Assembly: GCA_046538235.1 (NCBI GenBank)
Contig: JBKHJG010000003.1
Span: forward strand, 41,722 to 105,721
Source of the DNA: Dehalococcoidia bacterium
GTDB taxonomy: Bacteria; Chloroflexota; Dehalococcoidia; GIF9; AB-539-J10
Length of the DNA: 64,000 bases
Direction: 5' to 3'
This document shows positions 14,860 through 47,604 of the stretch, in pieces. Both the position numbers and the translations under genes were made by a program. Positions within the stretch are counted from its first letter, which is position 1; the number at the start of each line of letters is the position of its first letter. Below the pieces are notes generated by a model. It saw only the letters and a list, made by a program, of their open reading frames with translations, was not told the DNA's origin and made no database searches.

Positions 14860-16755
14860 GTGTCCAAGACACTGGACAAGATAAGCGGCCCGGCGGACAT
14901 CAAGGCCCTAGACCGGAGTACACTGACCGAACTCTGTTCCGAGATCAGGGAGCTGCTGGTGAGCAGGGTGACGGAAAACGGGGGGCACCTGGCCTCGAAC
15001 CTGGGAGCGGTGGAACTCAGTGTTGCCCTGCACAGGGTATTCGACAGCCCTGATGACAAGATAGTCTGGGATGTGGGACATCAGAGCTACGTCCATAAGC
15101 TACTGACGGGGAGACAAGCGCAGTTTCCCTCCCTGCGGCAGTACCGGGGACTGTCGGGGTTCCCTGACAGAAATGAGAGCCCTCACGATGCCTTTACCGT
15201 AGGACATGGGGGCACCTCCATCTCAGCAGCCCTGGGAATGGCGCTGACGCGCGATCTTACGGGCGGCGGGCACCATGTGATAGCCGTAATAGGGGACGGC
15301 TGTCTTACCTGCGGCATGACCTACGAAGCCCTGAACCACGCCGGCAACCTGGATACGCGCCTCATCGTGGTGCTCAACGACAACGGCATGTCCATCTCAC
15401 CCACGGTAGGGGCCATCGCCAGGCGGCTAAACGTGGTGCGGACAACCCGTGGCTATGTGAAGGCCAAGGAACAGACCAATCGACTGCTGTCCTTCCTGCC
15501 GGGAGGGGACAGGGTGCGCCCCGTACTGCGCCGGCTCAAGGAAGGAGCACAGGCCCTAGTCATGCCCACCATGATGTGGGAGCAGCTCGGCTTCGCCTAC
15601 CTGGGACCGATAGAGGGCCACAATGTGGCCAGGCTGGAGACAGCCCTCGAGCGAGCCAAAAACTACCGCAAGCCCGTCGTTGTGCATATCCTGACTACGA
15701 AGGGCAAGGGATACAGGCCAGCCGAGGAGAACCCCACTCGCTATCACGGCCTCTCACCGAAAAGCGAGAGCTCAAGCACAACCCCGACCTATAGTCAGAT
15801 ATTCGCCCGGACCGTCGACCGGCTGCTCAGGGATAACGCCAGTGTTGTCGTGATAAGCGCCGCTATGATGGAAGGCAACAGCCTGTCTTCCCTGGCCAGG
15901 GAGTTTCCTCACCGCATCTATGACGTGGGGATTTCCGAGCAGCATGCAGTAACGCTGGCCGCCGGCCTGGCCAGCCAGGGCCTCATACCCATTGTAGCTA
16001 TATACTCCACCTTTCTGCAGCGCGCCTTCGACCAGATACTGCACGACGTCTGTCTTCCTGATTTGCCCGTCATCTTCGCCCTGGACCGCAGTGGAATTGT
16101 GGGAGACGATGGCAAGACACATCAGGGGACCTTTGACCTATCTTACCTCGGCCTCATGCCCAATATGATTGTCTGTGCGCCCAAGGATGGGAACGAGCTC
16201 CAGGGTCTCCTCTATACCGCCCTCAATACGAAGCATCCCATGGCAATCCGCTATCCGCGCGGCCGGGCAACGGATGCTGCCCTGACCCCCGAGCTTCGCC
16301 AACTGCCCGTGGGCAAAGGTGAGATGATAAAACAGGGCAACGATATAGCTATAATAGGCATCGGCTCCACCGTCATGCCTGCCGTGGAAGCAGCAGAACA
16401 TCTGGCCCTGTCGGGTATAGATGCTGCGGTGATCAACGCGCGCTTCGCCCGGCCTCTGGACAGAGAGCTTATTATGGATGCTGTTGGCCGCACGAAGAAG
16501 GCGGTCATAGTAGAGGAGAACGTGCTCAGCGGTGGCTTTGGTGGTGCCGTGCTGGAGATGCTAGAGCAGGCCGGAGTCTCCGAAGTCAGGGTGAAGCGAT
16601 TAGGCATCCCCGGTGAGTTTGTGCCCCACGGAAAGCAAGAATTCCTGCGCTCTCTGTACCATCTGGACTCCTTGGGAATCGCCAGGGAATGTGTTGATTT
16701 CTTGGCCCGGGTGCAGGCAGAGGTGGAAGGCGAGGTTCAGACCACTATATTCTGA
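14860..16755 (+). CDS. dxs: 1-deoxy-D-xylulose-5-phosphate synthase
   Basis: 631-aa ORF with a GTG start. Dxs N-terminus and TPP-binding motifs (GHLASNLGAVELSVALHRVF, GDG...NDN). Confidence 0.95.
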   Translation: MSKTLDKISGPADIKALDRSTLTELCSEIRELLVSRVTENGGHLASNLGAVELSVALHRVFDSPDDKIVWDVGHQSYVHKLLTGRQAQFPSLRQYRGLSGFPDRNESPHDAFTVGHGGTSISAALGMALTRDLTGGGHHVIAVIGDGCLTCGMTYEALNHAGNLDTRLIVVLNDNGMSISPTVGAIARRLNVVRTTRGYVKAKEQTNRLLSFLPGGDRVRPVLRRLKEGAQALVMPTMMWEQLGFAYLGPIEGHNVARLETALERAKNYRKPVVVHILTTKGKGYRPAEENPTRYHGLSPKSESSSTTPTYSQIFARTVDRLLRDNASVVVISAAMMEGNSLSSLAREFPHRIYDVGISEQHAVTLAAGLASQGLIPIVAIYSTFLQRAFDQILHDVCLPDLPVIFALDRSGIVGDDGKTHQGTFDLSYLGLMPNMIVCAPKDGNELQGLLYTALNTKHPMAIRYPRGRATDAALTPELRQLPVGKGEMIKQGNDIAIIGIGSTVMPAVEAAEHLALSGIDAAVINARFARPLDRELIMDAVGRTKKAVIVEENVLSGGFGGAVLEMLEQAGVSEVRVKRLGIPGEFVPHGKQEFLRSLYHLDSLGIARECVDFLARVQAEVEGEVQTTIF

Positions 16756-22708: not shown

Positions 22709-23662
22709 TCATTCTCTGCGGGCAGCCCTCCGTCTACGCACGGATAAGGCCACCAGCGCTACCGCTATGGCCGCTGCTATTATTCCCGCAACAAGGCGCC
22801 AGTCCGGCGACTCCTGCACCACGATCTCCTGGCCGAAGCTGGCTGTGATGTTATAGCTGCCGTGCATGGTGATGTTGGTTGAGGCGACGGAGGTATCAGC
22901 GACCGTGTCGACTTCGCCCATCCATCTCAAGAAGCCGTAACCCTCATCAGGCTTGGCCTCCAGGTTAACTACCCTGCCGGCCTCATACGTGAAGGTACCC
23001 TCGCCCGGCCCCGTGACCGAACCACCCTCACCGCTCGAGATGGTGAGGCTGTACTCAACAACTGCGCCCTCAGCTATAGCCGTGATGGTCAATACGGCCG
23101 ACGGATACCCGTCGACCTTGATAGTCAGCTGTGCTTCGTCACCGACTGCCAGCAGGCTGTGGGTAAGGTAATCATGCGTGATCGTCAATCTGGCCGTGTC
23201 ATCCAGGAGATCCACCCTGTAGTCGACACCTTCGAGCAAAATAACGCCGTTACCATCCACTACGGAGTCCACCCCGGTCGCATCGTTCCAGGTGATGGTG
23301 GTCGACACGTCCACAGGATCAGCTAGGTCGTATTGAGCCTCTTCAGGGTCGATGGTGGCACCTCTGCCCTCAGTGGCCGTAACAGTAATGCCAGCAGCAG
23401 AGACGCCGATGCCTGCCGACAGGCCTGCGTTCTCACCGTCTGCGATAGAAGCTGCCGCCACGGTGTCCTTCCAGGTCACGGAGCTCTCGGCATTGACGGA
23501 ATCAGCAGATTCGCAGCCGGCCTCCGACGGTGGATGGGTGACGCCATCGCGAGGAGTGGACATAACCGGCGTGGCCATCAACAGGCTGAAACCCAACACC
23601 AGCATCGCAGCCAGGGGAATGCCACATGCCCTGCTCAAAGTATTCCTCCTTCTTCGCACCAA
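22709..23662 (-). CDS. surface protein with InlB B-repeat-like domain and C-terminal TM anchor with Arg-rich tail
   Basis: Signal peptide, Ig-like region and one GYGFLRW...NITASF repeat. The C-terminus is a hydrophobic helix followed by RRRRAARRE. Confidence 0.65.
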   Translation of the reverse strand: MVRRRRNTLSRACGIPLAAMLVLGFSLLMATPVMSTPRDGVTHPPSEAGCESADSVNAESSVTWKDTVAAASIADGENAGLSAGIGVSAAGITVTATEGRGATIDPEEAQYDLADPVDVSTTITWNDATGVDSVVDGNGVILLEGVDYRVDLLDDTARLTITHDYLTHSLLAVGDEAQLTIKVDGYPSAVLTITAIAEGAVVEYSLTISSGEGGSVTGPGEGTFTYEAGRVVNLEAKPDEGYGFLRWMGEVDTVADTSVASTNITMHGSYNITASFGQEIVVQESPDWRLVAGIIAAAIAVALVALSVRRRRAARRE

Positions 23663-27250: not shown

Positions 27251-28678
27251 ATGGCCGGCATTGTTTCATGGGGTGCCTACATACCGCTATGGCGGCTGTC
27301 CCGGGATGCCATTGCCGGGGCTTGGGGGAGTGCCTCAACCGGGGGTGAAAGAAGCGTAGCAAACAACGACGAAGATGCCATCACCATGGCCACCGAGGCT
27401 GCCATTGACTGTCTGGCCGGTTTGGCACGCGACACGGTAGATGGCCTATACTTCGCGTCTACTACCGCACCGTATAGAGAGAAGGAATGCTCTACTTTAG
27501 TGGCCACGGCTACCGACCTCAGGCCCGAGATCATCACCGCCGATTTCGGGAACAGCCTCAGAGCAGCGACAGCGGCATTCAGAGGGGCGCTAGACGCCAT
27601 AGCCGGTGACTCTGCCAGTCAGATCCTGGTGACCACCTCCGATTGCCGCATAGGTTATCCCCGGTCAACCTACGAACAGACCTTCGGTGATGCTGCGGCA
27701 GCCCTGCTGATTGGCAGTAGTGCCGAATCAGCTGTCACCGTGGAAGGCAGCCACTCTCTATGCAACGAGCTATACGATGTGTGGAGGCTGGACAAAGACG
27801 CCTATGTCCGGTCGTGGGAGGAGCGTTTCGTCATAGAGCACGGCTATATGGAGAATATGGAGAGGACGATCTCAGCGTTACTACGCAAGACAGCTGTCTC
27901 TGCACAGGATATCACCAGGGCCGTGCTTTACGCTCCCAACTCAAGGACCCAGCAAGGCCTGGCCCGCCGGCTGGGGCTGGATGTCGAGACGCAACTGCAG
28001 GACCTGTTTATCGACAACGTAGGCATCGCCGGTTGTGCCCATGTCCTGCTCATGCTGGTGGCAGCCCTCGAAAATGCCCATCCCGGCAACAGGATCCTGC
28101 TCGCCAGCTACGGCAGCGGCTGTGACGCTTTCCTGCTCAGAGTGAACGAGAAAATCGGCGAGGTCCAGAACACCAGAAGAGCCGTGAAGGGATACCTTGA
28201 CTCCAAGAGGCACCTATCCAGCTATGCAAGATATCTCAGCTACCGAGGACTGCTGGAGGCCCAGCCCGGCGAACCGTTCAGGCTTTTCCCTGCGGCCACG
28301 ACGGGATGGAGGGAACGCAACTGGGCCATCCGCATGCACGCTAGCCAGTGCCGGAACTGCGGCACTGTCACTTTCCCCATAGAAAGGGTCTGCTATAGGT
28401 GCCGAAGTAAGGACGATTTTGACGAAATCAGGCTCTCAGATAAGACGGCCAGGGTCTTCACTTTCACGCTGGACAACCTGGCCGGCAGAAGCGACGACCC
28501 AACAGTACCGCAGATAGGGGTGGAGTTTGAGTACCGGAATGCCAGGGCTTATCTCTTGATGACGGATTGTGATCCCGCCGAAGTGAGGGTCGACATGCCC
28601 GTAGAGATGACCCTCAGGAGGCTATACCAAGGTGCAGGCATGTACAACTATTTCTGGAAATGCCGCCCGATAAGATGA
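27251..28678 (+). CDS. archaeal-type HMG-CoA synthase-like condensing-enzyme domain fused to DUF35 (Zn-ribbon plus OB-fold) domain
   Basis: The N-terminus (MAGIVSWGAYIPLWRLSRDAIAGAWG...DEDAITMATEAA...DGLYFASTTAPY) aligns with the archaeal HMGCS N-terminus. The C-terminus (CRNCGTVTFPIERVCYRCRS...) is the DUF35 rubredoxin-like Zn ribbon plus OB fold. Confidence 0.7.
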   Translation: MAGIVSWGAYIPLWRLSRDAIAGAWGSASTGGERSVANNDEDAITMATEAAIDCLAGLARDTVDGLYFASTTAPYREKECSTLVATATDLRPEIITADFGNSLRAATAAFRGALDAIAGDSASQILVTTSDCRIGYPRSTYEQTFGDAAAALLIGSSAESAVTVEGSHSLCNELYDVWRLDKDAYVRSWEERFVIEHGYMENMERTISALLRKTAVSAQDITRAVLYAPNSRTQQGLARRLGLDVETQLQDLFIDNVGIAGCAHVLLMLVAALENAHPGNRILLASYGSGCDAFLLRVNEKIGEVQNTRRAVKGYLDSKRHLSSYARYLSYRGLLEAQPGEPFRLFPAATTGWRERNWAIRMHASQCRNCGTVTFPIERVCYRCRSKDDFDEIRLSDKTARVFTFTLDNLAGRSDDPTVPQIGVEFEYRNARAYLLMTDCDPAEVRVDMPVEMTLRRLYQGAGMYNYFWKCRPIR

Positions 28679-28687
28679 GATATCGAC

Positions 28688-29560
28688 ATGAAAGGACCGA
28701 CAATGAAGCGAAAACAATGGCAGAAGGTCCCGGGGTTTGATCTCCAGGACATCATCTATGAGAAGAGGCCGGGAGTGGCCAGGGTCACCATCAACAGGCC
28801 TGAGGCCTACAATGCCTTCACTACTGCCACCCAGTCGGAGTTGATAGAGGCTCTTGAGGATGCGGCCAGCGATGATGCCTCAGGCGTGGTGGTGTTTACC
28901 GGCGCCGGCGATAAGGCATTTTGCACAGGAGGTGATGCCAGGGAAGCCAAGGCCGGCTACCGGAAGGGGATGTTGGAGAAGGACCTGAGGGTCAAGACTC
29001 TGATACGGGAGATGCCCAAGCCTGTTATCGCAGCAGTGAACGGCTATGCCATAGGGGGAGGACAGGTCTACCAGCAGATTTGCGACCTGTCTATAGCTTC
29101 AGATAATGCCGTCTTCGGCCAGGTGGGCCCCCTGGTGGGCAGTTTCGATCCGGGCGTAGGTATCATTGATCTGATGATGGTAGTGGGTGAGAAAAAGGCG
29201 AGGGAGATATGGTACCTCTGCCGCCGCTATAGCGCCCAGGAGGCCCTTGAGATGGGGCTGGTGAACAAGGTAGTTCCGGCGGACGAGTTGGAGGAAGAGG
29301 TAGACAGGTGGTGTGATGAGATACTGGACAAGGGCCCTGGAGCTATAGCCGGCATCAAAGCATGCTTCAACGCTGCCACTACCTCTGTGCGCGGCATAGA
29401 GGCAGTCTCAGCCCAATACCTCTGGAAATACTACGCTTCCGAGGAAGCTGCCCACTGGAAGAATGCATTCTGGGAAAAGAAAAAGCCGGACTGGCAGAGA
29501 TTCAGGAGGAAGGAGCTATATCCCGGAGTGTATGAGGACGAAGAAAGCCAACAGGGGTGA
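28688..29560 (+). CDS. MenB-family crotonase (1,4-dihydroxy-2-naphthoyl-CoA synthase / BadI-like)
   Basis: WQKVPGFDLQDIIYEKRPGVARVTINRPEAYNAF...GVVVFTGAGDKAFCTGGD closely matches the MenB/BadI N-terminal consensus. Confidence 0.8.
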   Translation: MKGPTMKRKQWQKVPGFDLQDIIYEKRPGVARVTINRPEAYNAFTTATQSELIEALEDAASDDASGVVVFTGAGDKAFCTGGDAREAKAGYRKGMLEKDLRVKTLIREMPKPVIAAVNGYAIGGGQVYQQICDLSIASDNAVFGQVGPLVGSFDPGVGIIDLMMVVGEKKAREIWYLCRRYSAQEALEMGLVNKVVPADELEEEVDRWCDEILDKGPGAIAGIKACFNAATTSVRGIEAVSAQYLWKYYASEEAAHWKNAFWEKKKPDWQRFRRKELYPGVYEDEESQQG

Positions 29561-29586
29561 ACCGGTAACTGAGGGCGAGAAGGCCT

Positions 29587-30780
29587 ATGGAGAGCATAAA
29601 GGATAAAGTCGCCATCATCGGCATGGGGTGCACCAGGTTTGGGGAGAGATGGGATGCTGGTCTGGATGACCTGGCCATAGAGGCCGCCTACGAAGCCTAT
29701 GAGGATGCGAATATCGACCCCAGCGAGATTCAGGCCTGCTGGTATGGCAGCGTCACCCAACCGGTGGTCGGCATCGGTTGTACACACCTGGCAGGGCCAC
29801 TGAAGCTGCACGGCATACCCATGACGCGGGTAGAGAATTGGTGCACCACGGGGCATGAGGCCCTGAGGAATGCGTGTTTCGGCGTGGCCTGCGGCATGTA
29901 TGACCTGGTCCTGGTCCTGGGCGTGGAGAAGCTCAAGGACACCGGCTTTCCCGGCCTCGGAACCGGACGGGGGATGAGCCCTGTACTGGAGGCGCGCCGC
30001 ACTGCACCGGGCTCGTTCGGAATGATCGCCACTCGATATTTCTATACTTACGGGCTGAAACCTGAAGAGGGTAAGCGCATCCTGGGCCAGATTGCCGTTA
30101 AGAACCATTACAACGGCAGCCTTTGTCCCAAGGCCCATTTCCGCAATCGGGTGACCCTCGAACAGGTGTTGAATGCTCCCATCATAGCCTGGCCACTTGG
30201 TCTCTTCGACTGCTGCGGCAACAGCGACGGCGGTGCCGCCGCACTCCTGGCCCCGGCTGCTTGTGCCCGCGGGCACAGGGATGACCCGGTCTACATAAAG
30301 GGCATAGGTGCCGCTCATGCTGCACTCCTCCCTCAGAACCGCCCCGGATTCGATTGGCTGCATTTCGAGGAGGTCATCAATTCGTCGCGCCAGGCCTACG
30401 AGCAGGCCGGCGTGGAAAACCCTCGCGAGCAGATCGACATTGCCGAGGTCCACGATTGCTTCACCAGCACCGAGCTGCTCCTGTACGAGCTACTCGGTTT
30501 CAGTCCGGAGGGCAAAGCCAGAGAGGATATCGACTCCCACTTCTTTGAACTGGGTGGCGGCCTGCCTGTGAATACCGATGGTGGGCTCAAATGCTTTGGA
30601 CATCCGGTAGGCGCCAGCGGTCTGAGGATGACTTACGAGGTGTACAAACAACTGCAGGGCAAGGCCCAGTTGCCCGACCGTCAGCTAAAGCAGGTCAGGC
30701 TGGGCATATCACAGACCTTCGGTGGCCCCCCTCAGGTAGCAGCGGTAGCTGTTCTGGGCAACGAGCCGGGCTATCCTTAG
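29587..30780 (+). CDS. SCP-x-type thiolase (DUF35-associated thiolase-like protein)
   Basis: VAIIGMGCTRFGE...VENWCTTGHEAL (Cys-Thr-Gly nucleophile loop) and the thiolase C-terminus (CFGHPVGASG). Confidence 0.8.
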   Translation: MESIKDKVAIIGMGCTRFGERWDAGLDDLAIEAAYEAYEDANIDPSEIQACWYGSVTQPVVGIGCTHLAGPLKLHGIPMTRVENWCTTGHEALRNACFGVACGMYDLVLVLGVEKLKDTGFPGLGTGRGMSPVLEARRTAPGSFGMIATRYFYTYGLKPEEGKRILGQIAVKNHYNGSLCPKAHFRNRVTLEQVLNAPIIAWPLGLFDCCGNSDGGAAALLAPAACARGHRDDPVYIKGIGAAHAALLPQNRPGFDWLHFEEVINSSRQAYEQAGVENPREQIDIAEVHDCFTSTELLLYELLGFSPEGKAREDIDSHFFELGGGLPVNTDGGLKCFGHPVGASGLRMTYEVYKQLQGKAQLPDRQLKQVRLGISQTFGGPPQVAAVAVLGNEPGYP

Positions 30781-30851
30781 ATAAGGCAGTATCCATCCTG
30801 GGAAGTTTCTCGGCGAGAGGAACTGTGGTACAATTTTCTCGCCAAGGTAAG

Positions 30852-31235
30852 ATGCCTATTTACGAATATGTGTGTGATTCCTGCGGCCGGGCAGTTAGCT
30901 CTTATCAGAAGCACTCTACTGGGCATCCGTCACGCTGTCCCCATTGCGGCGGCACGAAGCTGAGTCGCGTATTCTCCACCTTCGCCGTGCACAAGACATA
31001 CAGGGACACCTACGAGGACATACTCTCCGACCGCCAGCTTACCCGCGGCATGATGCGGGATGACCCCCGGGCCCTGGCCGAGTGGAGCAGGAGGATGAGC
31101 AGCGGCGAGGAATCGCCTCCCGAGTATGAGGAATTGACGGAGAGAATGGACAGGGGCGAGTGGCCCGCGGCGCAAATACAGGAGAGAAGAGAGCAGTTCT
31201 CCGCCCCGGAGCAAACCACCACTGACAGCAACTGA
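30852..31235 (+). CDS. FmdB-family zinc-ribbon protein
   Basis: MPIYEYVCDSCGR...CPHCGGTKLSRVFS, the FmdB CxxC...CxxC signature. Start at the internal ATG of the track ORF. Confidence 0.7.
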   Translation: MPIYEYVCDSCGRAVSSYQKHSTGHPSRCPHCGGTKLSRVFSTFAVHKTYRDTYEDILSDRQLTRGMMRDDPRALAEWSRRMSSGEESPPEYEELTERMDRGEWPAAQIQERREQFSAPEQTTTDSN

Positions 31236-31250
31236 TGGGAGACATGCCAT

Positions 31251-31625
31251 ATGCCCATCTATGAATACGTGTGTCACAACTGCCGCAGGAGACTCAGTTT
31301 CCTGATAAGAGACATCTCCGCTCCCTGTGCGCCGAAATGCCCATTTTGCGGCAGCACCACCTTATCCCGTACCGTTTCCGGCTTTGCCTACCACAGGTCG
31401 CTGAAGACGGTATGGGAAGAGAGCGGCGAGCCTGGTCCACGCCCCGATGCAGGGTATTACAGGGAGCCGCGCAATATCGGCCGTTGGGTGGAGAAGAAGT
31501 TCCAGAGCATGGGACAGGAGCTGCCGCCGCAGCTTCAAGAGCAGATACAGGCAGCCAGGGAAGGCGTAATGCCCGAACCGCTGAAGGACATGGGAAGTGC
31601 TTCGCCAACCGCTGCGTATGATTGA
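31251..31625 (+). CDS. FmdB-family zinc-ribbon protein (tandem paralog)
   Basis: MPIYEYVCHNCRR...CPFCGSTTLSRTVS. Confidence 0.7.
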   Translation: MPIYEYVCHNCRRRLSFLIRDISAPCAPKCPFCGSTTLSRTVSGFAYHRSLKTVWEESGEPGPRPDAGYYREPRNIGRWVEKKFQSMGQELPPQLQEQIQAAREGVMPEPLKDMGSASPTAAYD

Positions 31626-33408: not shown

Positions 33409-34257
33409 TCAGTACTTGTAGAAGCCCTCACCCGTCTTGCGTCCCAAACGACCGGACTCGACCATATCTCTCAGCATTGCAGAGGGCGCCAGGCAGGGGT
33501 CCTTGCTCCTCTCATACATCGCGCGCGCTACCATATAGCCGACGTCCAGACCGTTGAAGTCGGCCAGGGCCAGTGGACCTATAGGATGACCCAGTCCCAG
33601 GGTCATGCTCTTATCAATATCCTCTGCACTGGCCACGCCGTTCTCCAGCAGGCGCACAGCAGCGCCTGTCAACGCCAGCAGCAGGTAATTGAAGATGAAT
33701 CCGGGAGTGTCCTGTGCCACCAGGATCTCCTTTCCCAGCGAACGGCCAAACTGCTTGATCGTTGCCAGCGTGTCCGCGCCGGTGGTATCTGCTGTGACAA
33801 TCTCGAGCAGCCTGCTGTGGGGTACGGGCGATAGAAAGTGTGTCCCCACTACTTTCCCGGGGCGTCCGGTTGCCCGGGCAAGCTCTGTGACGGATAGACA
33901 AGAAGTGTTGGAGCACAGGATCGTGTGTCCGGGACAAACCCTGTCCAGCCTGGCGAAAAGTCCCTTCTTGACTTTCATATCCTCCGGGACGGCTTCGATA
34001 ACCAGATCGCGGTCATCTAGGGCCTCATCAGGGATGCTGCCCCTGATACGGGCCCGGGTTGATTGCTTGTCCTGCTCGGATATCCTGCCTTTGTCGACGT
34101 CTCGGCCCAGGTAACGCTCTATTGCGGCCAGACCCTTGCTCAGCCGCTCATCGCTGACTTCCACGACCATTACGTCGTAGCCGGACTGAGCGCAGACCTG
34201 GGCAATGCCGGCGCCCATGAAGCCGCAGCCCACCACTCCTACCTTCTTAACATCCAT
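33409..34257 (-). CDS. hbd: 3-hydroxyacyl-CoA (3-hydroxybutyryl-CoA) dehydrogenase
   Basis: VKKVGVVGCGFMGAGIAQV Rossmann fold and HCDH C-terminal domain. Start at the internal ATG (residue 21), which abuts the stop of the next gene. Confidence 0.85.
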   Translation of the reverse strand: MDVKKVGVVGCGFMGAGIAQVCAQSGYDVMVVEVSDERLSKGLAAIERYLGRDVDKGRISEQDKQSTRARIRGSIPDEALDDRDLVIEAVPEDMKVKKGLFARLDRVCPGHTILCSNTSCLSVTELARATGRPGKVVGTHFLSPVPHSRLLEIVTADTTGADTLATIKQFGRSLGKEILVAQDTPGFIFNYLLLALTGAAVRLLENGVASAEDIDKSMTLGLGHPIGPLALADFNGLDVGYMVARAMYERSKDPCLAPSAMLRDMVESGRLGRKTGEGFYKY

Positions 34258-34258
34258 G

Positions 34259-35392
34259 TTAGTCACCGAGCAGTCCCATCTCCCTGGCCACCGCCTGCCG
34301 GTAGAAATCGGCATCACCGAAGGCGAGTTCTGCGGCCTTCGCGCGCCTGGTGTGAAAATGCAGGTCGTGTTCCATGCTAACGCCGATTGCGCCGTGAATC
34401 TGGTGAGCCAGGTTCATGACACGCCGGGAAGCTTCGCCAGTCCAGGCTTTGGCTATAGCCGCCTCCCTGGTACAGGAGAGTCCCTGGCTTAGCATCCAGG
34501 CTGCCTGATAGGTGCTGAACCTGGCGCCATCAACGTCGGTTGCCATGTCCACGCAATAGTGCTGAATGGCCTGGAAACTGCCAATTGGACGACCGAATTG
34601 TTTCCTCTCCTTGGCATAGTCCACAGTCATCTCCAGTACCCGCTGAATATTGCCCACGCTCTCGCAGCACTTAGCAACTGCCGCTCTCTGGACTATCTCC
34701 TGTACCACGCTGTAGTCCTGCGCTCGCCCCCCCAATACGTCAGCCTCTGGCACCGGCAATCGGTCAAAGACAACCTCGCATAGCTTGTCACCTCCGATGC
34801 TCTTCAACAGCTTGTGGCTTATGTGCGGGCTCCTGGCATTCGCCACAAGTACACCCATCCCGTTTTCGGATCTCATCCTGGCTACACATAGTACGTAGTC
34901 AGCGACATGGGCGTCGGGCACAAACAGCTTTGTGCCTTTGATAATATGGTTGCCACCGTAGGCGATGGCTTCAACTACGACTTCACGGGCATCATAGTTC
35001 CGGCAGCCAGGTTCAAGCAAGGCCAGGGTCAGCATGTTCTCGCCGCGGATCGCCGGGGGCAGGTATTTCTGCCTCTGCTCTTCACTGCCCAGCTCCGAGA
35101 TGGGCAGAAGGCCAAGGACCACCGTGGAAAAGAAGGGCCCAGGCAGGCACGCCCGCCCCATCTCCTCCAGTAGTACTGCCAGGTCGAGAAAACCCATGCC
35201 GCCGCCACCATATTGCTCCGGCAAGGCCAGGCCCATCCAGCCTAGATCGGCCATCTCTCTCCACAGTTCCGGCGAATACCCTCCCTCACTCCCTTCCATC
35301 TGCTTAACGTAGGCCTTGGGACACTTATCAGCAAGGAAAGCCCGGGCGGTCTTCCTTAGCATTTCTTGCTCTTCAGTAAGGGCCAACTTCAT
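34259..35392 (-). CDS. acyl-CoA dehydrogenase
   Basis: ACAD fold motifs (GGNHIIKGTKLFVPDA, catalytic-region YAKERKQFGRPIGSFQAIQH). Confidence 0.85.
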   Translation of the reverse strand: MKLALTEEQEMLRKTARAFLADKCPKAYVKQMEGSEGGYSPELWREMADLGWMGLALPEQYGGGGMGFLDLAVLLEEMGRACLPGPFFSTVVLGLLPISELGSEEQRQKYLPPAIRGENMLTLALLEPGCRNYDAREVVVEAIAYGGNHIIKGTKLFVPDAHVADYVLCVARMRSENGMGVLVANARSPHISHKLLKSIGGDKLCEVVFDRLPVPEADVLGGRAQDYSVVQEIVQRAAVAKCCESVGNIQRVLEMTVDYAKERKQFGRPIGSFQAIQHYCVDMATDVDGARFSTYQAAWMLSQGLSCTREAAIAKAWTGEASRRVMNLAHQIHGAIGVSMEHDLHFHTRRAKAAELAFGDADFYRQAVAREMGLLGD

Positions 35393-35488: not shown

Positions 35489-36646
35489 TCAGGCGCTAGG
35501 CAACCCCAATCCCCGCGCAGCCACGATATTCTTCAGGATTTCAGTGGTGCCTGCCTGAAGGCTATAGCCCTTGGAGCCCAGGTATGAGTGCGGTGCCATG
35601 CCCCGGAGGGGGACTAACTCAGAGTCGTGCACCAGCTGGCCGTACGGACCTAACACCTCTATAGCTACGTTGGCCAGGCGTTTCTCGAACTCCGTGGAAT
35701 AGGCCTTGGACATAGCGGACTCCCAATTGGGAGTCCGTCCCTCTTCCATCACCGAAGTCACCCTGTAGCCGAGCAGGCGTCCCACCTCGAAGTCAATCTG
35801 GAGCTGGGCCAGCTTATGCCGGATCACCGGGTCCTGGCACAGTCCGTTCTCCCGGCTAAACTGAACGATGCCCGCGAAGAGAGGGTAGTTGCCCATGATG
35901 CGCTCCATGCCGCTCCTCTCATAGTCGAGCTGATGGAGCACCTGATAGAAGCCGCGGTTCTTCTCGCCTATCAGATACCTCTTGTGTACGCGCACATTGT
36001 CAAAGAAGAGGTCGCTCCATGCCTCGGTACCTGTGATGTCCGTCATGGGAATGCGACTCAGCCCGGGCGAACCCGCATCGACTATGAACTCACTGATGCC
36101 TCTGTGTTTTGGTGCCTCCGGGTCTGTTCTGGCATAGACGTCGAAGTAGTGGGCAAAGTAGGCGCAGCTGGTCCAGGTCTTCTGACCATTGATTACATAA
36201 TAATCGCCATCTTCCACCGCCCTGGTCTGCAGAGAGGCCAGGTCCGAGCCTGCGCCAGGTTCACTCATTCCCAGGCCGAAATAAGCCTCGCCCCGGGCGA
36301 TCCTGGGCAGGAATTCCTTCTTTAGCTCTTCTGAGCCGAAGGACAGTATGGCACCGCCCACCTGACGGTCGCCAAACCAGTGACATGCGGCCGGTGCTCC
36401 ATAGCGCAGCATTTCTTCAGTGAGGATGAGTCTATCCGTATGGCTGCGACCCTGGCCGCCGTACTCCTTGGGCCAAGTCAGTCCTATCCAGCCCCTGTCT
36501 GCCACTCGTTTCGTAAATCCGGGATCAAAGCCCTGTATCCAGGCGTCACATGCAGGTTTCCAGTACCCGCTCTCTATCTCCCCCTCTAAGAATCTGCGCA
36601 CCTCCTCTCTTAACCGATTCTGCTCCTCGGTGAAGCCGAAATCCAT
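35489..36646 (-). CDS. acyl-CoA dehydrogenase
   Basis: ACAD motifs (GLTWPKEYGGQG, YYVINGQKTWTS). Confidence 0.85.
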   Translation of the reverse strand: MDFGFTEEQNRLREEVRRFLEGEIESGYWKPACDAWIQGFDPGFTKRVADRGWIGLTWPKEYGGQGRSHTDRLILTEEMLRYGAPAACHWFGDRQVGGAILSFGSEELKKEFLPRIARGEAYFGLGMSEPGAGSDLASLQTRAVEDGDYYVINGQKTWTSCAYFAHYFDVYARTDPEAPKHRGISEFIVDAGSPGLSRIPMTDITGTEAWSDLFFDNVRVHKRYLIGEKNRGFYQVLHQLDYERSGMERIMGNYPLFAGIVQFSRENGLCQDPVIRHKLAQLQIDFEVGRLLGYRVTSVMEEGRTPNWESAMSKAYSTEFEKRLANVAIEVLGPYGQLVHDSELVPLRGMAPHSYLGSKGYSLQAGTTEILKNIVAARGLGLPSA

Positions 36647-36661: not shown

Positions 36662-38224
36662 TCAGAGGTTGATATTGGAATACTTCCTCCAAGGCCGGGC
36701 CACACATTTGTTTTCCAGAGCATCCAGCGCCCTGTTTATGACTTTTCTGGTGTCGGCCGGGTCTATCACATCGTCAACATAGCCTCTCTCTGCGGCTCGA
36801 TAGGGGTTCTCGTACATTTCTGAGAATTCCCTTATCCTCTTGGTTCGTACCTCATCGGGCTGATCTGAGTCCCTTATCTCCTTGGCGAAGATGACGCTGG
36901 CAGCAGTTTCAGCTCCGACAATGGTGATCCGGGCTGTGGGCCAGGCAAAGACAAAATCTGCGCCGATAGCCTTGTCCAGCATCCCGTAGTGAGCGCCGGC
37001 ATAGGACTTTCTGATTATGACTGCAATCAAAGGCACGGTAGCATCAGCCCAGGCAAACAGCAGCTTGGCGCCGTGGCGGAGGATTCCTGCCCAGTCCTGC
37101 TGAGAGCCGATCAGATAACCGGGAGAGTCGTGGAGAGTGATGAGGGGAATGCCGAACAGATCGCAGAACCTGACGAACCTGGCCCCCTTATCGGCAGCAT
37201 CAACATCTATGCAGCCCGCCATCCATTTCGGCTGCGTAGCTACTATCCCGGCAGGACGGCCGTTGAAGCGGGCAAAACCGGTGATGATGTTCCGGGCATG
37301 GAGCCCCATGGTCTCAAAGAAGTGGCCGTCATCAGCTATCCTCTCGATAACCTGGTACATATCAAAAGGTTCATGTGCATGCCCGGGCAGCAGGCTGATC
37401 AGGTCCGCTCTCCTCTCCGGACTATCATCCGTTTCTATGCGAGGAGGCTTCTCCCTGTTGTTGGATGGCAGGAATGACAGAAGTTCCTTACACTTGTCCA
37501 GACAATCAGCATCGTCTTCCGCCACTATATGCGTTTGCCCCGACTTGACGGCATGCGCCCTGTAGCCGGAAAGCTCCTCGAGGCTGATTTCCTCCCCGGT
37601 CTGCGTCTTGACGAAGGCAGGGCCGGCAATGCCCATGAATCCCGTGCTCTTAGTTTGAATCAGGAAGTCCTGCATCACCGGATGGTATGCCTGCCCGCCA
37701 AGACAGGGTCCCATGAGCAGAGCTACCTGGGGCACTATACCGGAGGCCAGGATTTGAGACCTGAACAGCCATCCGTAGCTTTCCAGCGTGTCAATTCCTT
37801 CCTGCAGTCGGGCACCTCCGGAGTCGTTCATACCCACAAACGGCCATCCATTCTCCTTGGCGAATTCGATAGCGCGAACGAACTTCCTGCCGTGATATTC
37901 TCCGAACGTTCCCGCCATCGCCGTATAGTCCTCCGCGGCAACAACGGCGTTCCTGCCGTTCACCTTACCGAAGCCAGTGATTACGCCTTCAGCTGGTACC
38001 TCCCTCCGGTCCATGCCGAAGGCAGTTGTCCTGTGCCTGACGAACAGACCTATCTCCGTGAACGTGCCACGGTCGAAGAAGTAGTCTATCCTTTCCCGGG
38101 CCGACATCTGCCCCTTCTTATGGCGATCCTCAATCGCCCCTGGCCCCCCCATCTGCAGAATGCGTTCCCGTTTCCTCTTCAGTTCCTCCAGTGTATCCGT
38201 ATCCTTATGAGACTCATCAACCAT
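36662..38224 (-). CDS. acyl-CoA carboxylase carboxyltransferase subunit (propionyl-CoA carboxylase beta / methylmalonyl-CoA carboxyltransferase family)
   Basis: 520 aa with the two-lobed carboxyltransferase signature (GGARLQEGIDTLESYG, GPCLGGQAY, IVAEDDADC). Confidence 0.85.
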   Translation of the reverse strand: MVDESHKDTDTLEELKRKRERILQMGGPGAIEDRHKKGQMSARERIDYFFDRGTFTEIGLFVRHRTTAFGMDRREVPAEGVITGFGKVNGRNAVVAAEDYTAMAGTFGEYHGRKFVRAIEFAKENGWPFVGMNDSGGARLQEGIDTLESYGWLFRSQILASGIVPQVALLMGPCLGGQAYHPVMQDFLIQTKSTGFMGIAGPAFVKTQTGEEISLEELSGYRAHAVKSGQTHIVAEDDADCLDKCKELLSFLPSNNREKPPRIETDDSPERRADLISLLPGHAHEPFDMYQVIERIADDGHFFETMGLHARNIITGFARFNGRPAGIVATQPKWMAGCIDVDAADKGARFVRFCDLFGIPLITLHDSPGYLIGSQQDWAGILRHGAKLLFAWADATVPLIAVIIRKSYAGAHYGMLDKAIGADFVFAWPTARITIVGAETAASVIFAKEIRDSDQPDEVRTKRIREFSEMYENPYRAAERGYVDDVIDPADTRKVINRALDALENKCVARPWRKYSNINL

Positions 38225-42537: not shown

Positions 42538-43959
42538 CTACCAGACAACAGTGACACCCCTGCCCTGGAGGGCAGGAATATGTGTGCCGATCGACGTCGA
42601 GCTCAGCGGATTCCAGCGCAGGTCGACATAATCATCTGTACCCAAGCCCGTATTATCCACCAGAGGACCAATGTCGCTAATCTGGTTGCTCCAGAGGTAG
42701 AGCACCGACAGATTGGTGAGGTTGGTCAGAGGGGATAGATTGCTTATCTGATTGTCCGCGAGATAGAGCACAGACAGATTGGTGAGGTTAGCCAGAGGGG
42801 ATATGTTGCTTATCTGGTTCTCCCACAGGCCGAGCTCTGTCAGGTTGGTTAGGTTAGTCAGAGACGATATACTGCTTATCTGATTCGATCCCAGGAAAAG
42901 CCGTTGCAGGCTGGCAAGTGTGGCCAGAGGCGAGATATCACTTATCTGGTTGTCGACCAGGAAGAGATACTTCAGGTCAGTGCAGTACTGCAGCCCCGTG
43001 AGATTGGTGATATTCTGTTCAGAAGCATCAAGGAATATCAGTCCTTGAAGGTCTGAAGGTTCGATGGGCCCAGTGGGTTTGGCGATAGCCGCCCTGATCG
43101 CCGCCTCAAGGTTGGGGTCCGGGAAGTTCACGCCATCTCCTTCTGCCTGGAAGTTCGCGGTGATTGTGTAGTTACCATTCATGGTAATGGTAGTCGACGC
43201 AGCATTGGCATTCGCGACAGTGCCCACATCGCCGCTCCAGCCTGAGAACTCGTACCCGGTATCTGCGGTGGCCACGAGATCAACCTCCTCTTCAGGATCA
43301 TGATAGTAAGTTCCTTCACCGGGAGTGGTTACCGAGCCGCCGCTGGTGCTGGAGATGGTCAGGTTGTACTGGTCAGGCGGTATCAGTTCGAACTTGGCTA
43401 TGACGGAGTAGTTGCCGTTCATGGTGATGCTGGTCGAGGCAGTGTTGGGATCGCTGACCTCACTCACGTCGCCCTGCCACTCGACAAACCTGTAGCCAGT
43501 CGCTGCACTGGCCACCAGGTTGACGACTGTACCCTCCTCCGACGTGAACTGGCCTTCACCGGGAGCCGTTACCGAGCCGCCGGCAGTGCTGGAGATGCTC
43601 AACGTGTACTGGATGGGACCCGTCAGCTCAAAGCTAGCCTTCACATTGTAATTGCCTTGTACGCTGGTGATGGTCGTAGAGGGGGATGTTACATCGTCGA
43701 TGGGGGCACCACCCCCAGCCCAGCTCACAAAACGATAGCCACTGTCTGGCGTGGCCACCAGGCTCACCTCAGCCCCGAAATCGAAATAGTAAGTCCCCTC
43801 TCCGGGAGCTGTTACCGAGCCCCCTTCTGTGCTGGAGAACGTGAGCTCGTACTGCGTCATACCGCAACCCGTCACGCCCAGAACCAGCAGTGCCGCAGCC
43901 AGGAGCGCGCTCAGCGCTGCTACGTAGTGACGGTTTCCTTTACCGAGCCATAGTTTCAT
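42538..43959 (-). CDS. internalin-like lipoprotein, 4 InlB B-repeat-like domains plus leucine-rich repeats
   Basis: Lipoprotein signal (LVLGVTGC). Four roughly 70-aa repeats carry GY.F..W...NV.A.F. Then come at least 7 copies of a 22-residue LRR (NLTNLT.L.L..NQISNISPL). Confidence 0.75.
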   Translation of the reverse strand: MKLWLGKGNRHYVAALSALLAAALLVLGVTGCGMTQYELTFSSTEGGSVTAPGEGTYYFDFGAEVSLVATPDSGYRFVSWAGGGAPIDDVTSPSTTITSVQGNYNVKASFELTGPIQYTLSISSTAGGSVTAPGEGQFTSEEGTVVNLVASAATGYRFVEWQGDVSEVSDPNTASTSITMNGNYSVIAKFELIPPDQYNLTISSTSGGSVTTPGEGTYYHDPEEEVDLVATADTGYEFSGWSGDVGTVANANAASTTITMNGNYTITANFQAEGDGVNFPDPNLEAAIRAAIAKPTGPIEPSDLQGLIFLDASEQNITNLTGLQYCTDLKYLFLVDNQISDISPLATLASLQRLFLGSNQISSISSLTNLTNLTELGLWENQISNISPLANLTNLSVLYLADNQISNLSPLTNLTNLSVLYLWSNQISDIGPLVDNTGLGTDDYVDLRWNPLSSTSIGTHIPALQGRGVTVVW

Positions 43960-44360
43960 AATCTCACCTCTAGATCCTTACAGCTCCCGGAGGCTTAAGT
44001 CACGGAGCGCATCACACTATGCACTGGCCGCACTGCGCTTTGACATCTAGCTGCCAGCTGCAGCGTATCGCTCCCCTCCATCGGCCAAAGAACTCTCTTC
44101 GTGCCTTCATGGGGCACGACGCACCACCACCGTGCTTATCCCAACCGCGCCATGCAAGCACTTGATCGCCAGGCCTCTGCTAGCCTCAAGATGCTATTGT
44201 ACCAACTGGGAGTAGATTGTCAATACCGGTCAAGGCAGCCCCGGCCGTATACTCTGCCGTTGCATGTCTGGGTCATGGCTCAAGCATCAGCGTCCCTACG
44301 GTCCTGTCCGGCAGGGAACAGTTCGCCTCCGGCAGGCGCCTACGCTCCCCAAGCAATAGT

Positions 44361-44389
44361 TTGACGTTTCCTCTAGTTGACGATAAAAT
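44361..44389 (+). promoter_or_regulatory. putative sigma70-type promoter of rnpB (TTGACG-17-TAAAAT)
   Basis: TTGACG, a 17-nt spacer, then TAAAAT. It ends about 7 nt before the predicted P1 5' end of RNase P RNA. Confidence 0.5.
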
Positions 44390-44395
44390 GGGGTT

Positions 44396-44807
44396 GGGTG
44401 AGTAAACCGGGTGATCGCCCCGGCTCAGCGCAGCAGGGGAGGAAAGTCCGAGCTCCACCGAGCAGGGTGCTGGGTAACGCCCAGGAGGGGGGACCCTACG
44501 GAAAGTGCCACAGAAACACACCGCCAGCGGCCCCGATGTTGTCGGGGCGCGGGTAAGGTTGAAATGGTGAGGTAAGAGCCCACCAGCAGCCAGGAGACTG
44601 GCTGGCTAGGCAAACCCCACCCGGAGCAAGACCGAATAAGGGGGCTCGACTTGACCTGGAGCCTCAGGACTGCGAGTCAAGTCTAAGGTGCTCGGCCGAG
44701 GCCCTCGGGTTGGTCGCTTGACCCTGATGGCAACGTCAGGGCTAGATGGATGGTCACCACCCCGAATCGCTCGGGGTACAGAACTCGGCTTATAGGTTTA
44801 CTCACCC
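44396..44807 (+). ncRNA. rnpB: RNase P RNA, bacterial type A
   Basis: The 5' GGGTGAGTAAACC pairs with the 3' GGTTTACTCACCC (P1). Universal conserved blocks are present: GGAAAGTCCGAGCTCCAC, GGGTAACGCCCAGG, GAAAGTGCCACAGAAA, GGTAAGAGCCCACCAG, CCACCCGGAGCAAG and ACAGAACTCGGCTTATAGG. Confidence 0.9.
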
Positions 44808-44808
44808 G
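44782..44808 (+). repeat. attL-like 27-nt direct repeat (within rnpB 3' end)
   Basis: aactcggctta(t)aggtttactcacccg recurs at 62933-62959 with one mismatch (c). Confidence 0.7.
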
Positions 44809-44922
44809 TTGAGTTTGGGGGGATCCGCCGCCTGAGGGTTCTGTGCGGAAGGGGTGGGCCATGAAAAAAAGGGTACCATGGGGTGTTGTGGTTGTCAAGG
44901 GGGGCCGTGGTATAATGGTGGT

Positions 44923-45198
44923 ATGCTTCGCTTTATGATCTTCGCTTCGCTTGCCGCGCTGGCGTTGCTGAGTGGGACCGCCGGCGTGGTGGGGGTGACG
45001 CCTGGCGAGGACGGCGCCGGTGGGACGGAAACCGCCGAACCGGGCGGATCCGGTGGCCCGGAGGGGGCGGTGGAACCGCCGTCGGCGTCGGTGGGGATCG
45101 TCATCACCATGTTCGCCGAGGATGGGGACGGGGCGGAGGGTGCGCGGGCGAGTGTGACGCTGAGGGCGAGGACGGCGCCGGCGGATGAGGGGGGTTAG
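44923..45198 (+). CDS. small secreted Gly/Glu-rich protein (element-borne, only plus-strand gene; candidate moron)
   Basis: An internal ATG gives MLRFMIFASLAALALLSGTAG signal-like N-terminus. It lies just inside attL, downstream of rnpB, on the same strand. Confidence 0.4.
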   Translation: MLRFMIFASLAALALLSGTAGVVGVTPGEDGAGGTETAEPGGSGGPEGAVEPPSASVGIVITMFAEDGDGAEGARASVTLRARTAPADEGG

Positions 45199-45280
45199 GG
45201 GAAAGGAGCTCGAGGAAAACGGGCTCGGGGTTGTCCTCGAAAAAAAGGGCGGAGCCCTTTCGGGCCCCGCCCCAGGGTGG

Positions 45281-45647: not shown

Positions 45648-45723
45648 GGTGTACCTCCTTTCTATTGATTGGTTGGGGGCGGGGGTCGGACCCGCCCCTG
45701 TGGGGGGTGGGCGAGGGTGGTGG

Positions 45724-46227: not shown

Positions 46228-46293
46228 TGAGTTGTACCTCCTTTCTCTATTGGCGGGAGGGGGCCCGGCGCCCCCTCCGGTGGGGTGACGAAG

Positions 46294-47601: not shown

Positions 47602-47604
47602 GGT

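Follow-up and report, generated by a model that had tools for sequence, protein, structure and literature searches.

A MenB/BadI-family crotonase gene between the subunit genes of a predicted degradative thiolase complex with a pseudo-HMG-CoA synthase in an uncultured Dehalococcoidia bacterium

In the PfACAT/HMGS-DUF35 complex of Pseudomonas fluorescens, a thiolase is paired with an HMG-CoA synthase (HMGS) part fused to DUF35; the HMGS part is inactive, and no HMG-CoA is made (Liao et al., Nat Commun 2026, PMC12960953). The fused complex cleaves acetoacetyl-CoA in a reaction requiring the histidine of the HDxF motif, is one among about 1,000 such bacterial loci, and has been viewed as an evolutionary intermediate without a pathway (PMC12960953). 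The archaeal thiolase/HMGCS/DUF35 complex (PDB 6esq) has the same three-part composition. PhlACB and MucABC (PDB 5m3k, 9skh, 9vbo) likewise comprise a non-catalytic HMGS-like subunit, a DUF35 and a catalytic thiolase-fold subunit, but in PhlC and MucB the HDxF histidine is gone; these enzymes use small-molecule acceptors and are encoded beside PKS/NRPS genes. The benzoylsuccinyl-CoA thiolase BbsAB (PDB 7pxp), a DUF35-associated SCP2-type thiolase with HDxF, belongs to an anaerobic, beta-oxidation-like catabolism; its BbsA component, however, is a stand-alone DUF35 protein without an HMGS-like domain.

The stretch of DNA analysed here (the window, 64 kb) stems from an uncultured Dehalococcoidia bacterium and contains three plus-strand ORFs, verified at 27251-28678, 28688-29560 and 29587-30780. 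As originally predicted, they encode an HMGS-like/DUF35 fusion, a MenB/BadI-family crotonase and an SCP2-type thiolase, with profile and PDB matches in agreement. The thiolase gene starts 909 bp downstream of the fusion gene in the same operon, the crotonase gene lying exactly between these two complex-subunit genes. The operon is flanked by the housekeeping genes gmk, aroA and thiE. The features referred to below are as follows.

27251-28678, plus strand: pseudo-HMG-CoA synthase fused to DUF35, 475 aa (profile, PDB, fold and alignment evidence)
27251-28261, plus strand: HMGS-like thiolase-fold domain of the fusion protein (aa 1-337)
27461, 27557, 27929 and 28025, plus strand: former catalytic tetrad, T71, L103, Y227 and I259 (alignment to HMGS)
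aa 338-345 of the fusion protein, plus strand: low-confidence linker in the structure model
28286-28675, plus strand: DUF35 (aa 346-475), zinc ribbon plus OB fold
28349-28402, plus strand: C4 zinc ribbon in the DUF35 part (Cys367, Cys370, Cys381, Cys384)
28688-29560, plus strand: MenB/BadI-family crotonase of a third, uncharacterised clade; 290-aa ORF, probable start ATG 28703 (M6), 285 aa
29587-30780, plus strand: SCP2-type (archaeal-type) thiolase, 397 aa (NF004810, 492 bits, cutoff 403)
29842-29844, 30451-30462 and 30601-30603, plus strand: thiolase Cys86, His289-Asp-Cys-Phe292 and His339 of GHP (motif alignment)
33409-34317, minus strand: 3-hydroxyacyl/3-hydroxybutyryl-CoA dehydrogenase (Hbd), candidate pathway partner (NF004474, 313 bits, below cutoff)
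34259-35392, minus strand: acyl-CoA dehydrogenase; PimD (pimeloyl-CoA dehydrogenase small subunit) among the top NCBIfam matches (186 bits, far below cutoff)
35489-36646, minus strand: acyl-CoA dehydrogenase; best NCBIfam match PimC (pimeloyl-CoA dehydrogenase large subunit; 197 bits, far below cutoff)
36662-38224, minus strand: MmdA/GcdA/PccB-type acyl-CoA carboxyltransferase (Pfam Carboxyl_trans; TIGR01117, 662 bits against a cutoff of 999)

Residues 1-336 of the fusion protein resemble archaeal HMG-CoA synthase (NF003274, 230 bits, below the cutoff of 244; PDB 6esq_I, 4e-35), and residues 351-474 correspond to DUF35 (6esq_E, 6e-12; Pfam zf-ChsH2 and OB_ChsH2_C). The structure model (pLDDT 87.4, pTM 0.90) superposes on the HMGCS of 6esq with a TM score of 0.92 and an rmsd of 1.7 Å; among fold matches, 6esq_I ranked first, followed by PhlA and MucA. 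Since the thiolase also has its top PDB match in this complex (6esq_A, 200 bits), all three modules find their best sequence and fold match there, bearing out the kinship with the archaeal complex that had been proposed. Unlike in the archaeal complex, DUF35 forms one protein with the HMGS-like domain, whose active site is destroyed. From a reading by eye of ASTTAPY where G(S/T)E(S/T) was expected, and of a second motif in place of EAC(Y)AATAA, the original prediction had concluded that the catalytic Glu and Cys were lost. Alignment with HMGS confirmed both motifs (ASTT for GSES, FGNSLRA for EFACKAG) and the loss (E82 to T71, C114 to L103), and extended it to His238 (Y227) and Asn270 (I259), so that the entire E-C-H-N tetrad is substituted. 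Because neither Glu nor Cys occurs at the catalytic columns in any of 132 family representatives (≤50% identity) or 81 genomic copies, the loss is not a matter of chance. The zinc-ribbon cysteines, on the other hand, are invariant in the family alignment, and the fusion gene is under strong purifying selection (dN/dS 0.06-0.09) despite the loss of the tetrad. Judged by its sequence, the fusion protein cannot make HMG-CoA. A mevalonate context is also lacking: genes of the MVA pathway were not seen in the window, and since dxs of the MEP pathway is present (14860-16755; TIGR00204, 736 bits), a role in mevalonate synthesis is not supported, as had been suspected. The gene ispE adjoins the related cluster L055.

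The thiolase shows the opposite pattern. All 65 partner thiolases carry Cys86, the HDCF motif and His339, and the protein encoded in the window is 90-91% identical to its orthologues in the lineage (dN/dS 0.03-0.05). Of 79 loci, which come from Dehalococcoidia, Desulfobacterota, Bathyarchaeia and other groups, 71 have the fusion and thiolase genes side by side. The window thus harbors an HMGS-DUF35 fusion without its tetrad and a co-located thiolase with Cys, HDxF and GHx, the set of features that characterizes the P. fluorescens complex; PKS/NRPS neighbours are absent in both cases. The two loci differ in their hosts and in the crotonase gene located between the subunit genes in the window. 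The match of BbsB to the thiolase reached 134 bits only. The thiolase is predicted from these residues to be the sole catalytic subunit. The proposal that the fusion serves as a non-catalytic scaffold for it is supported by the intact Cys/HDCF/GHP residues, by purifying selection and by the published homologous complex (PMC12960953), yet it is not new, as a dead fusion/thiolase pair has already been described and has relatives in PhlACB and MucABC. The new element is the crotonase between the two subunit genes.

Homologues of the crotonase begin at M6 (28703). In the numbering of the 290-aa ORF, the protein retains the oxyanion residues G82 and G124 as well as Y91, S152, D154 and Y249, equivalent to G86, G133, Y97, S161, D163 and Y258 of E. 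coli MenB; according to the residue alignment, both glutamates of enoyl-CoA hydratases are absent. These catalytic residues are common to MenB and BadI and do not discriminate between them. BadI, the 2-ketocyclohexanecarboxyl-CoA hydrolase of the R. palustris bad/ali/pim system, is the nearest annotated relative (57.5% identity, as compared to ≤54% for MenB), but the crotonase has different pocket residues and scored 306.6 bits on the BadI model TIGR03210 (cutoff 467.6; true BadIs, 474-547). With MenB (1,4-dihydroxy-2-naphthoyl-CoA synthase) it shares 47-52% identity, the GSFD motif and similar extensions at both termini, but its A-loop region is shortened, and its scores on the MenB models PRK07396 (315.6 bits, cutoff 380) and TIGR01929 (280.9 bits, cutoff 342.7) are in or below the range of genuine BadIs (312-351) rather than that of true MenBs (445-529). 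In an NJ tree lacking resolution at its deeper nodes, the crotonase grouped with the homologue from L055 at 100% bootstrap and was excluded from the MenB clade (87% bootstrap). The phylogenetic placement that had been called for therefore puts it in a separate clade, and by score and tree the sequence falls outside both the MenB and the BadI groups. Its insertion between the subunit genes is conserved in this lineage only, where it is kept strictly and throughout (82-93% identity, dN/dS about 0.05).

The hbd gene and two acyl-CoA dehydrogenase (ACAD) genes that had been noted at 33.4-36.6 kb were located there on the minus strand, and the synteny of Hbd with the operon holds across the lineage. 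The ACAD encoded at 34259-35392 probably is one half of a two-subunit enzyme. A crotonase with PimC/PimD-like ACADs, Hbd and a thiolase close by is reminiscent of the bad/ali/pim genes of R. palustris. The PimC/PimD likeness of the two ACADs is remote. The same ACAD pair recurs in locus L043, which has the gene order FUS-THL-ECH-ACAD-ACAD (FUS, fusion; THL, thiolase). The carboxyltransferase, homologues of which occur near FUS/THL in L015 and L030, is weakly linked to the operon and represents a possible decarboxylase subunit for a dicarboxyl-CoA. Sister-clade crotonase homologues (L055, L100, L153) are accompanied by genes for AliB-like and BadH-like proteins, by Hbd and hydratase genes and by a fusion/thiolase pair; the metagenome context survey started from peptide patterns with a bias towards BadI-like sequences. 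On plasmid pAZKH of Azoarcus, genes of an ACAD, an SDR and a MenB/BadI-like ECH lie within 10 kb of such a pair, and ECH, HBD or ACAD homologues are present in 22 of 44 long loci. Since a BadH-like SDR, an AliB-like dehydrogenase, an acyl-CoA ligase and an ordinary enoyl-CoA hydratase are all absent near the operon in the window, and BadH, AliB or AliA are not adjacent to the crotonase, a Bad-type pathway lacks its upstream steps locally.

On balance, we lean towards an operon that codes for a heteromeric degradative thiolase and a Claisen-type crotonase, acting in the ring opening and subsequent beta-oxidation of alicyclic or dicarboxylic acyl-CoAs. Domains, tetrad loss, thiolase motifs, conservation and contexts were computed for this locus and its relatives, while the inactivity of the HMGS part and the thiolytic activity are known from the literature on the homologue; complex formation in this organism, the reaction and substrate of the crotonase, and the pathway are inferred. 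The thiolase would be the lone catalyst, with Cys86 as nucleophile assisted by the histidines of HDCF and GHP, and would cleave 3-oxoacyl-CoA thiolytically, possibly also catalyzing the reverse reaction. The fusion would be a pseudoenzyme that preserves the fold and subunit arrangement of the archaeal complex, probably holding the thiolase soluble and assembled and contributing part of a shared CoA-binding chamber. The Tyr/Ser/Asp/Tyr and oxyanion-hole residues of the crotonase are those used for Dieckmann or retro-Dieckmann chemistry; most likely, it would hydrolyze a C-C bond of a cyclic beta-ketoacyl-CoA in a BadI-type ring opening to a dicarboxyl-CoA, which would then be shortened by the neighbouring two-subunit ACAD, Hbd and the thiolase complex. 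The link to alicyclic-CoA beta-oxidation put forward in the original prediction gains support from the BadH/AliB-like neighbours of the sister clade, the pathway assignment being drawn from context. Because of the gene contexts and the purifying selection (dN/dS 0.03-0.09 across the three genes), the complex is better regarded as a working catabolic thiolase than as a pathway-less intermediate.

Alternatively, but with rather low probability, the complex could serve a small-genome anaerobe as a general thiolase for acetoacetyl-CoA or short-chain substrates in the metabolism of butyrate, crotonate or fatty acids, with the crotonase as an unrelated or loosely related passenger inserted by chance. 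Consistently, the sole tested homologue cleaves acetoacetyl-CoA (PMC12960953), the thiolase exceeds the cutoff of NF004810 ('acetyl-CoA acetyltransferase'), an Hbd of the 3-hydroxybutyryl-CoA type is close by, and the neighbourhood consists of housekeeping genes. Moreover, L001 and L002, which contain the nearest fusion/thiolase orthologues outside the lineage, have no crotonase gene, indicating that the thiolase complex can do without one. A chance insertion, however, is difficult to reconcile with the strict lineage-wide conservation of the crotonase and with the association of MenB/BadI-family genes with fusion/thiolase pairs at least three further independent times (L043, L055, Azoarcus).

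MenB is the catalyst of an intramolecular Claisen condensation. The operon might encode a biosynthetic C-C bond-forming module, in which the thiolase would condense acyl-CoAs and a MenB-like Dieckmann-type cyclization would drive this unfavourable reaction, replacing the 'pull' exerted by HMGS in archaea. The MenB-like termini and complete set of catalytic residues of the crotonase, the position of its gene between the subunit genes, and the archaeal ancestor being a channeling complex (PMC12960953) would fit such a function. We nevertheless consider it improbable: the homologous fused complex failed to condense acetyl-CoA in vitro (PMC12960953), the genes near the operon and around sister-clade members are catabolic ones (ACAD, Hbd, BadH-like, AliB-like), and downstream tailoring or export genes are absent.

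It is very improbable that the crotonase is a true MenB serving menaquinone synthesis, unrelated to the thiolase pair, even though naphthoate synthase is its annotation in several sources and its top solved-structure matches are MenBs (289 bits), there being no BadI structure to compare. Besides the scores and the tree, which already separate it from bona fide MenB as anticipated, menA, C, D, E, F and H are missing from the 64-kb window and from syntenic contigs, whereas reference MenBs all adjoin men genes. Dehalococcoides-type Chloroflexi reportedly do not make quinones (PMC5736913). A Friedel-Crafts C-acyltransferase of the PhlACB/MucABC type, with a phenolic or tetramic-acid acceptor, is suggested by PhlA, which is likewise non-catalytic and ranks second among the structural and sequence relatives of the fusion. 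It is hardly credible, given that the thiolase retains the HDCF motif lost in PhlC and MucB, resembles the archaeal thiolase (200 bits) far more than PhlC (80-84 bits), and is encoded in a window without PKS or NRPS genes.

The dead-HMGS/thiolase pairing was first described biochemically in 2026 (PMC12960953), and the locus presented here adds to it a crotonase encoded between the subunit genes. In a speculative and unlikely further reading, the crotonase might dock on the dead HMGS/DUF35 scaffold and use the inherited shared CoA-binding chamber, its MenB/BadI-type (retro-)Claisen site functionally replacing the lost HMGS site. If so, the operon would encode a new thiolase-crotonase channeling machine that opens or closes carbocyclic acyl-CoAs. 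For the uncultured host, the locus points to cyclic or dicarboxylic acyl-CoAs being broken down, not to the synthesis of mevalonate or vitamin K.

The original prediction had placed three open reading frames (ORFs) on the plus strand, and all of them were found as described:

27251–28678, plus strand: fusion ORF of 475 aa, HMGS-like domain plus DUF35
28688–29560, plus strand: crotonase ORF, best models MenB and BadI
29587–30780, plus strand: thiolase ORF, SCP2-type (NF004810, 492 bits; cutoff 403)

The gaps within this operon measure 9–24 bp (fusion/crotonase) and 26 bp (crotonase/thiolase); a promoter and terminator scan of 26.3–33.5 kb gave no informative signal within or around it. Residues 1–336 of the fusion protein resemble archaeal HMG-CoA synthase (HMGS; NF003274, 230 bits, slightly below the cutoff of 244; PDB 6esq_I, 4e-35), and residues 351–474 resemble DUF35 (6esq_E, 6e-12; Pfam zf-ChsH2 and OB_ChsH2_C). 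Its AlphaFold model is confident (pLDDT 87.4, pTM 0.90) and comes closest to HMGCS from the archaeal complex (TM 0.92, rmsd 1.7 Å), then to PhlA and MucA, each the non-catalytic subunit of an acyltransferase complex. An identical protein is recorded in one Dehalococcoidia MAG.

The catalytic tetrad of HMGS, E82-C114-H238-N270 in the Methanothermococcus enzyme (PMC12960953), is replaced in the fusion by T71, L103, Y227 and I259 in pairwise and multiple alignments; the predicted loss of Glu and Cys is thus real, and His and Asn are gone as well. With all four residues replaced, a functional HMG-CoA synthase is excluded. Neither Glu nor Cys occurs at the tetrad columns in any of 132 full-length representatives of 50%-identity clusters, nor in any of 81 reference-genome copies, Bathyarchaeia and Ca. 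Alkanophaga among them; all four zinc-ribbon cysteines are invariant in the 81 copies. The replacing residues are mostly Thr at position 71 (114/132 representatives) and Leu at position 103 (98/132), and this strong conservation suggests that the old active-site cavity has been filled in a defined way and is not drifting. In the window, the codons of T71 and L103 lie at 27461–27463 and 27557–27559. Compared with orthologues of close relatives sharing the operon, the fusion shows 75–81% identity and dN/dS values of 0.06–0.09, which are rough because dS is near saturation; judged from these sequences, the protein is constrained despite the loss of the tetrad. Dead fusions beside a thiolase also occur in Bathyarchaeia (L017, L020, L041, L052) and Ca. 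Alkanophaga (L053), where the tetrad reads TLSN, TLPN or VLYI; these archaeal hosts require a real HMGS for their lipids.

A fused HMGS-DUF35/ACAT complex of P. fluorescens was characterized in January 2026, in a study which surveyed 1,030 bacterial HMGS/ACAT/DUF35 loci, 1,001 of them without secondary-metabolism neighbours (PMC12960953). Its HMGS part lacks the tetrad, and its thiolase has the Cys, HDxF and GHx motifs; acetyl-CoA yields neither HMG-CoA nor acetoacetyl-CoA, and the complex catalyzes thiolytic cleavage of acetoacetyl-CoA, abolished by mutation of the HDxF histidine (PMC12960953). That histidine is missing from PhlC and from MucB; the latter, the related thiolase subunit of a Streptococcus complex, was insoluble if expressed on its own (PMC12960953). 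The suggestion that the fusion is a non-catalytic scaffold for the thiolase is supported by this homologue but, since the P. fluorescens complex had already been characterized, it is not new. The core of dead HMGS::DUF35 and active thiolase belongs to the kind described in 2026, and the central surprise is already published; what is new here is the operon variant with an embedded crotonase of a third MenB/BadI clade. Literature searches covering Dehalococcoidia and anaerobic degraders brought up nothing specific to this operon.

The nearest solved relative of the thiolase is 6esq_A of the same archaeal complex (200 bits); PhlC and MucB match much more weakly (72–84 bits). All 65 partner thiolases and the archaeal reference share Cys86, His289-Asp-Cys-Phe292 and His339. 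Of the three gene products the thiolase is the best conserved, with 90–91% identity to the orthologues of close relatives. Of 80 genome loci with a fusion gene, 79 have room for a neighbouring thiolase, and in 71 of these one (at least 40% identity) is encoded on the same strand no more than 250 bp away. The usual order is fusion before thiolase; Bathyarchaeia show the reverse, often near Hbd/ECH genes. With 2,157 database matches the pair is very widespread, occurring in Dehalococcoidia, Desulfobacterota, Syntrophia, Bathyarchaeia, Ca. Alkanophaga, Sporomusa and others, often in multiple copies per genome. Such paralogous pairs, as at L007, L008, L010, L024 and L062, suggest substrate specialization. 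Further multi-pair genomes are CP070819.1 (L058, L074) and JACPPT01 (L038, L042), and some pairs are tandem or divergent.

The complex has been viewed as an evolutionary intermediate without a pathway (PMC12960953). We argue that the dead-HMGS/thiolase pair instead serves anaerobic degraders as a mainstream catabolic thiolase, because all three genes are under purifying selection, the fusion is strictly paired with an intact thiolase, several paralogous pairs coexist in some genomes, beta-oxidation neighbours recur, with ECH, HBD or ACAD (acyl-CoA dehydrogenase) homologues within 7 kb in 22 of 44 long loci, and the taxa carrying fusion loci are mostly anaerobic degraders.

The crotonase (numbering of the 290-aa ORF) retains G82, G124, Y91, S152, D154 and Y249, which are common to MenB and BadI and correspond to G86, G133, Y97, S161, D163 and Y258 of E. 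coli MenB. An ordinary enoyl-CoA hydratase role was rejected, as both catalytic glutamates are absent (V/Q and G147 instead). By its sequence the protein fits neither characterized subfamily, each model scoring it about like members of the opposite one:

Bit scores of MenB/BadI-type crotonases against three curated models
Protein: MenB PRK07396; menB TIGR01929; BadI TIGR03210
Window crotonase: 316; 281; 307
Reference MenBs: 494–529; 445–494; 308–337
PGAP-annotated BadIs: 334–351; 312–316; 474–547
Curated cutoff: 380; 343; 468

The closest annotated plasmid genes are BadI (up to 57.5% identity); MenBs do not exceed 54%. Pocket-lining segments are unlike both subfamilies: the A-loop is shortened, GVGIIDLMM replaces GYGAGYLAR or GFGTAFLAR, and LWKYYAS stands by the C-terminal Tyr. 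In a neighbour-joining tree the crotonase, its orthologues in close relatives and a homologue of 66% identity found in a different Dehalococcoidales MAG (L055) group with 100% bootstrap; deeper nodes have 12–47% support, so that a new clade sister to BadI and one sister to MenB are not separable.

At L055 the genes run MenB/BadI-like crotonase, ACAD, two SDRs, Hbd, short-chain enoyl-CoA hydratase, dead fusion, thiolase. The top match of the ACAD is the cyclohexanecarboxyl-CoA dehydrogenase AliB (365 bits), and that of both SDRs is BadH (233 and 228 bits); because all scores are below equivalog cutoffs, the chemistry would parallel the ali/bad route of R. palustris without necessarily being identical. 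In two contigs with L055-type crotonases, a BadH-like gene precedes the crotonase gene (L100) or an AliB-like gene follows it (L153), and L043 has the order fusion-thiolase-MenB/BadI-like crotonase-ACAD-ACAD. Genuine BadI genes are flanked by a BadH-type SDR and BadK or AliB. The metagenome scan for relatives of the crotonase used peptide patterns such as EKKAREIW, which favour BadI-like sequences, and the few MenB contexts recovered are therefore no evidence. On plasmid pAZKH of Azoarcus sp. KH32C, a fusion/SCP2-thiolase pair is separated by about 9 kb from genes for an ACAD, an SDR and a MenB/BadI-like crotonase, the last sharing 49.6% identity with that of the window. Around them are ETF, a CoA-transferase, an acyl-CoA ligase (AMP-ligase) and a second thiolase. 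This catabolic cluster (L177, record 376000–400000) also holds a long ECH-related protein, MaoC pairs and MarR. As a cultured denitrifier, the strain offers a tractable model for the proposed link between crotonase and complex.

The order gmk-CT398-fusion-crotonase-thiolase-FmdB-ThiD2/ThiE...hbd-ACAD-ACAD-carboxyltransferase is kept in many contigs of close relatives and in a 1.62 Mb genome (CP070793.1). In the 80 more distant genome loci, no crotonase gene separates fusion and thiolase; the insertion is thus lineage-specific. The downstream cluster in the window comprises:

3–8 kb from the operon, opposite strand: Hbd
3–8 kb away, opposite strand: PimD-like ACAD, pimeloyl-CoA dehydrogenase small subunit among the top matches (remote)
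3–8 kb away, opposite strand: PimC-like ACAD, top match pimeloyl-CoA dehydrogenase large subunit (remote)
3–8 kb away, opposite strand: carboxyltransferase of the MmdA/GcdA type

Two FmdB-family CxxC zinc-ribbon genes directly follow the thiolase (30591–31625) and are syntenic with the operon in relatives; the first ORF (30591–31235) overlaps the thiolase end, and the position of its domain, from residue 88 onwards, makes a true start close to 30852 probable. The window contains dxs (14860–16755), and uppS (7629–8327) overlaps a geranylgeranyl-reductase-family gene (8324–9526, minus strand), which together indicate MEP-derived, possibly saturated, isoprenoids. Probable surface proteins with InlB B-repeat (Flg_new_2), CBM_X2 or internalin-like LRR domains are encoded at 2714–4618, 22709–23662 and 42538–43959, and in relatives the syntenic region is bordered by comparable Flg_new_2 proteins. 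From 44000 to 64000 the GC content rises from about 0.57–0.59 to 0.61–0.68, most long ORFs have no NCBIfam match, and ORF 56494–57435 (minus strand) encodes an epsilon15 gp7-like major capsid protein (NF045672, 159 bits; cutoff 75); this part is probably a prophage or integrated phage, possibly a mis-assembled join.

We propose that the thiolase would be the sole catalyst of a complex assembled on the pseudo-HMGS/DUF35 scaffold, which sequence and the published biochemistry of the homologue render highly probable. The crotonase would, like BadI, hydrolyse a C-C bond of a cyclic beta-ketoacyl-CoA, after which the ACAD pair, Hbd and thiolase complex would carry the ring-opened product through beta-oxidation; this pathway, suggested by family chemistry and recurrent gene association, is tentative, with chances slightly below even. 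Taken as a whole, the proposal is somewhat favoured. The observation behind the original prediction was confirmed, and its interpretation held for the most part. The main weakness is that upstream Bad/Ali-type genes are missing near the operon: the 64 kb window has no BadH-like SDR, AliB-like ACAD, acyl-CoA ligase or ordinary hydratase. Moreover, the closest orthologous pairs without a crotonase (L001, L002) show, as far as gene content tells, that the thiolase complex would work without one, which weakens the ring-opening proposal. That the complex is a general short-chain thiolase and the crotonase incidental is unlikely; a biosynthetic condensation or cyclization module is less likely still. 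That the crotonase is a genuine MenB is very improbable; the MenB clade of the tree (87% bootstrap) excludes it, and men genes, among which genuine MenB genes are situated, are absent from the 64 kb window. A PhlACB-type acyltransferase is scarcely credible, given that the thiolase retains the HDCF motif.

The automatic labels "HMG-CoA synthase" and "naphthoate synthase" mislead metabolic reconstructions, resulting in false mevalonate and menaquinone calls, and the present finding corrects them. Ring opening by the proposed route would make the third MenB/BadI clade a testable, concrete way into the opening of alicyclic rings that uncultured sediment Chloroflexi might perform, and through the operon the catabolism of alicyclic-CoAs by uncultured Dehalococcoidia could be tested.
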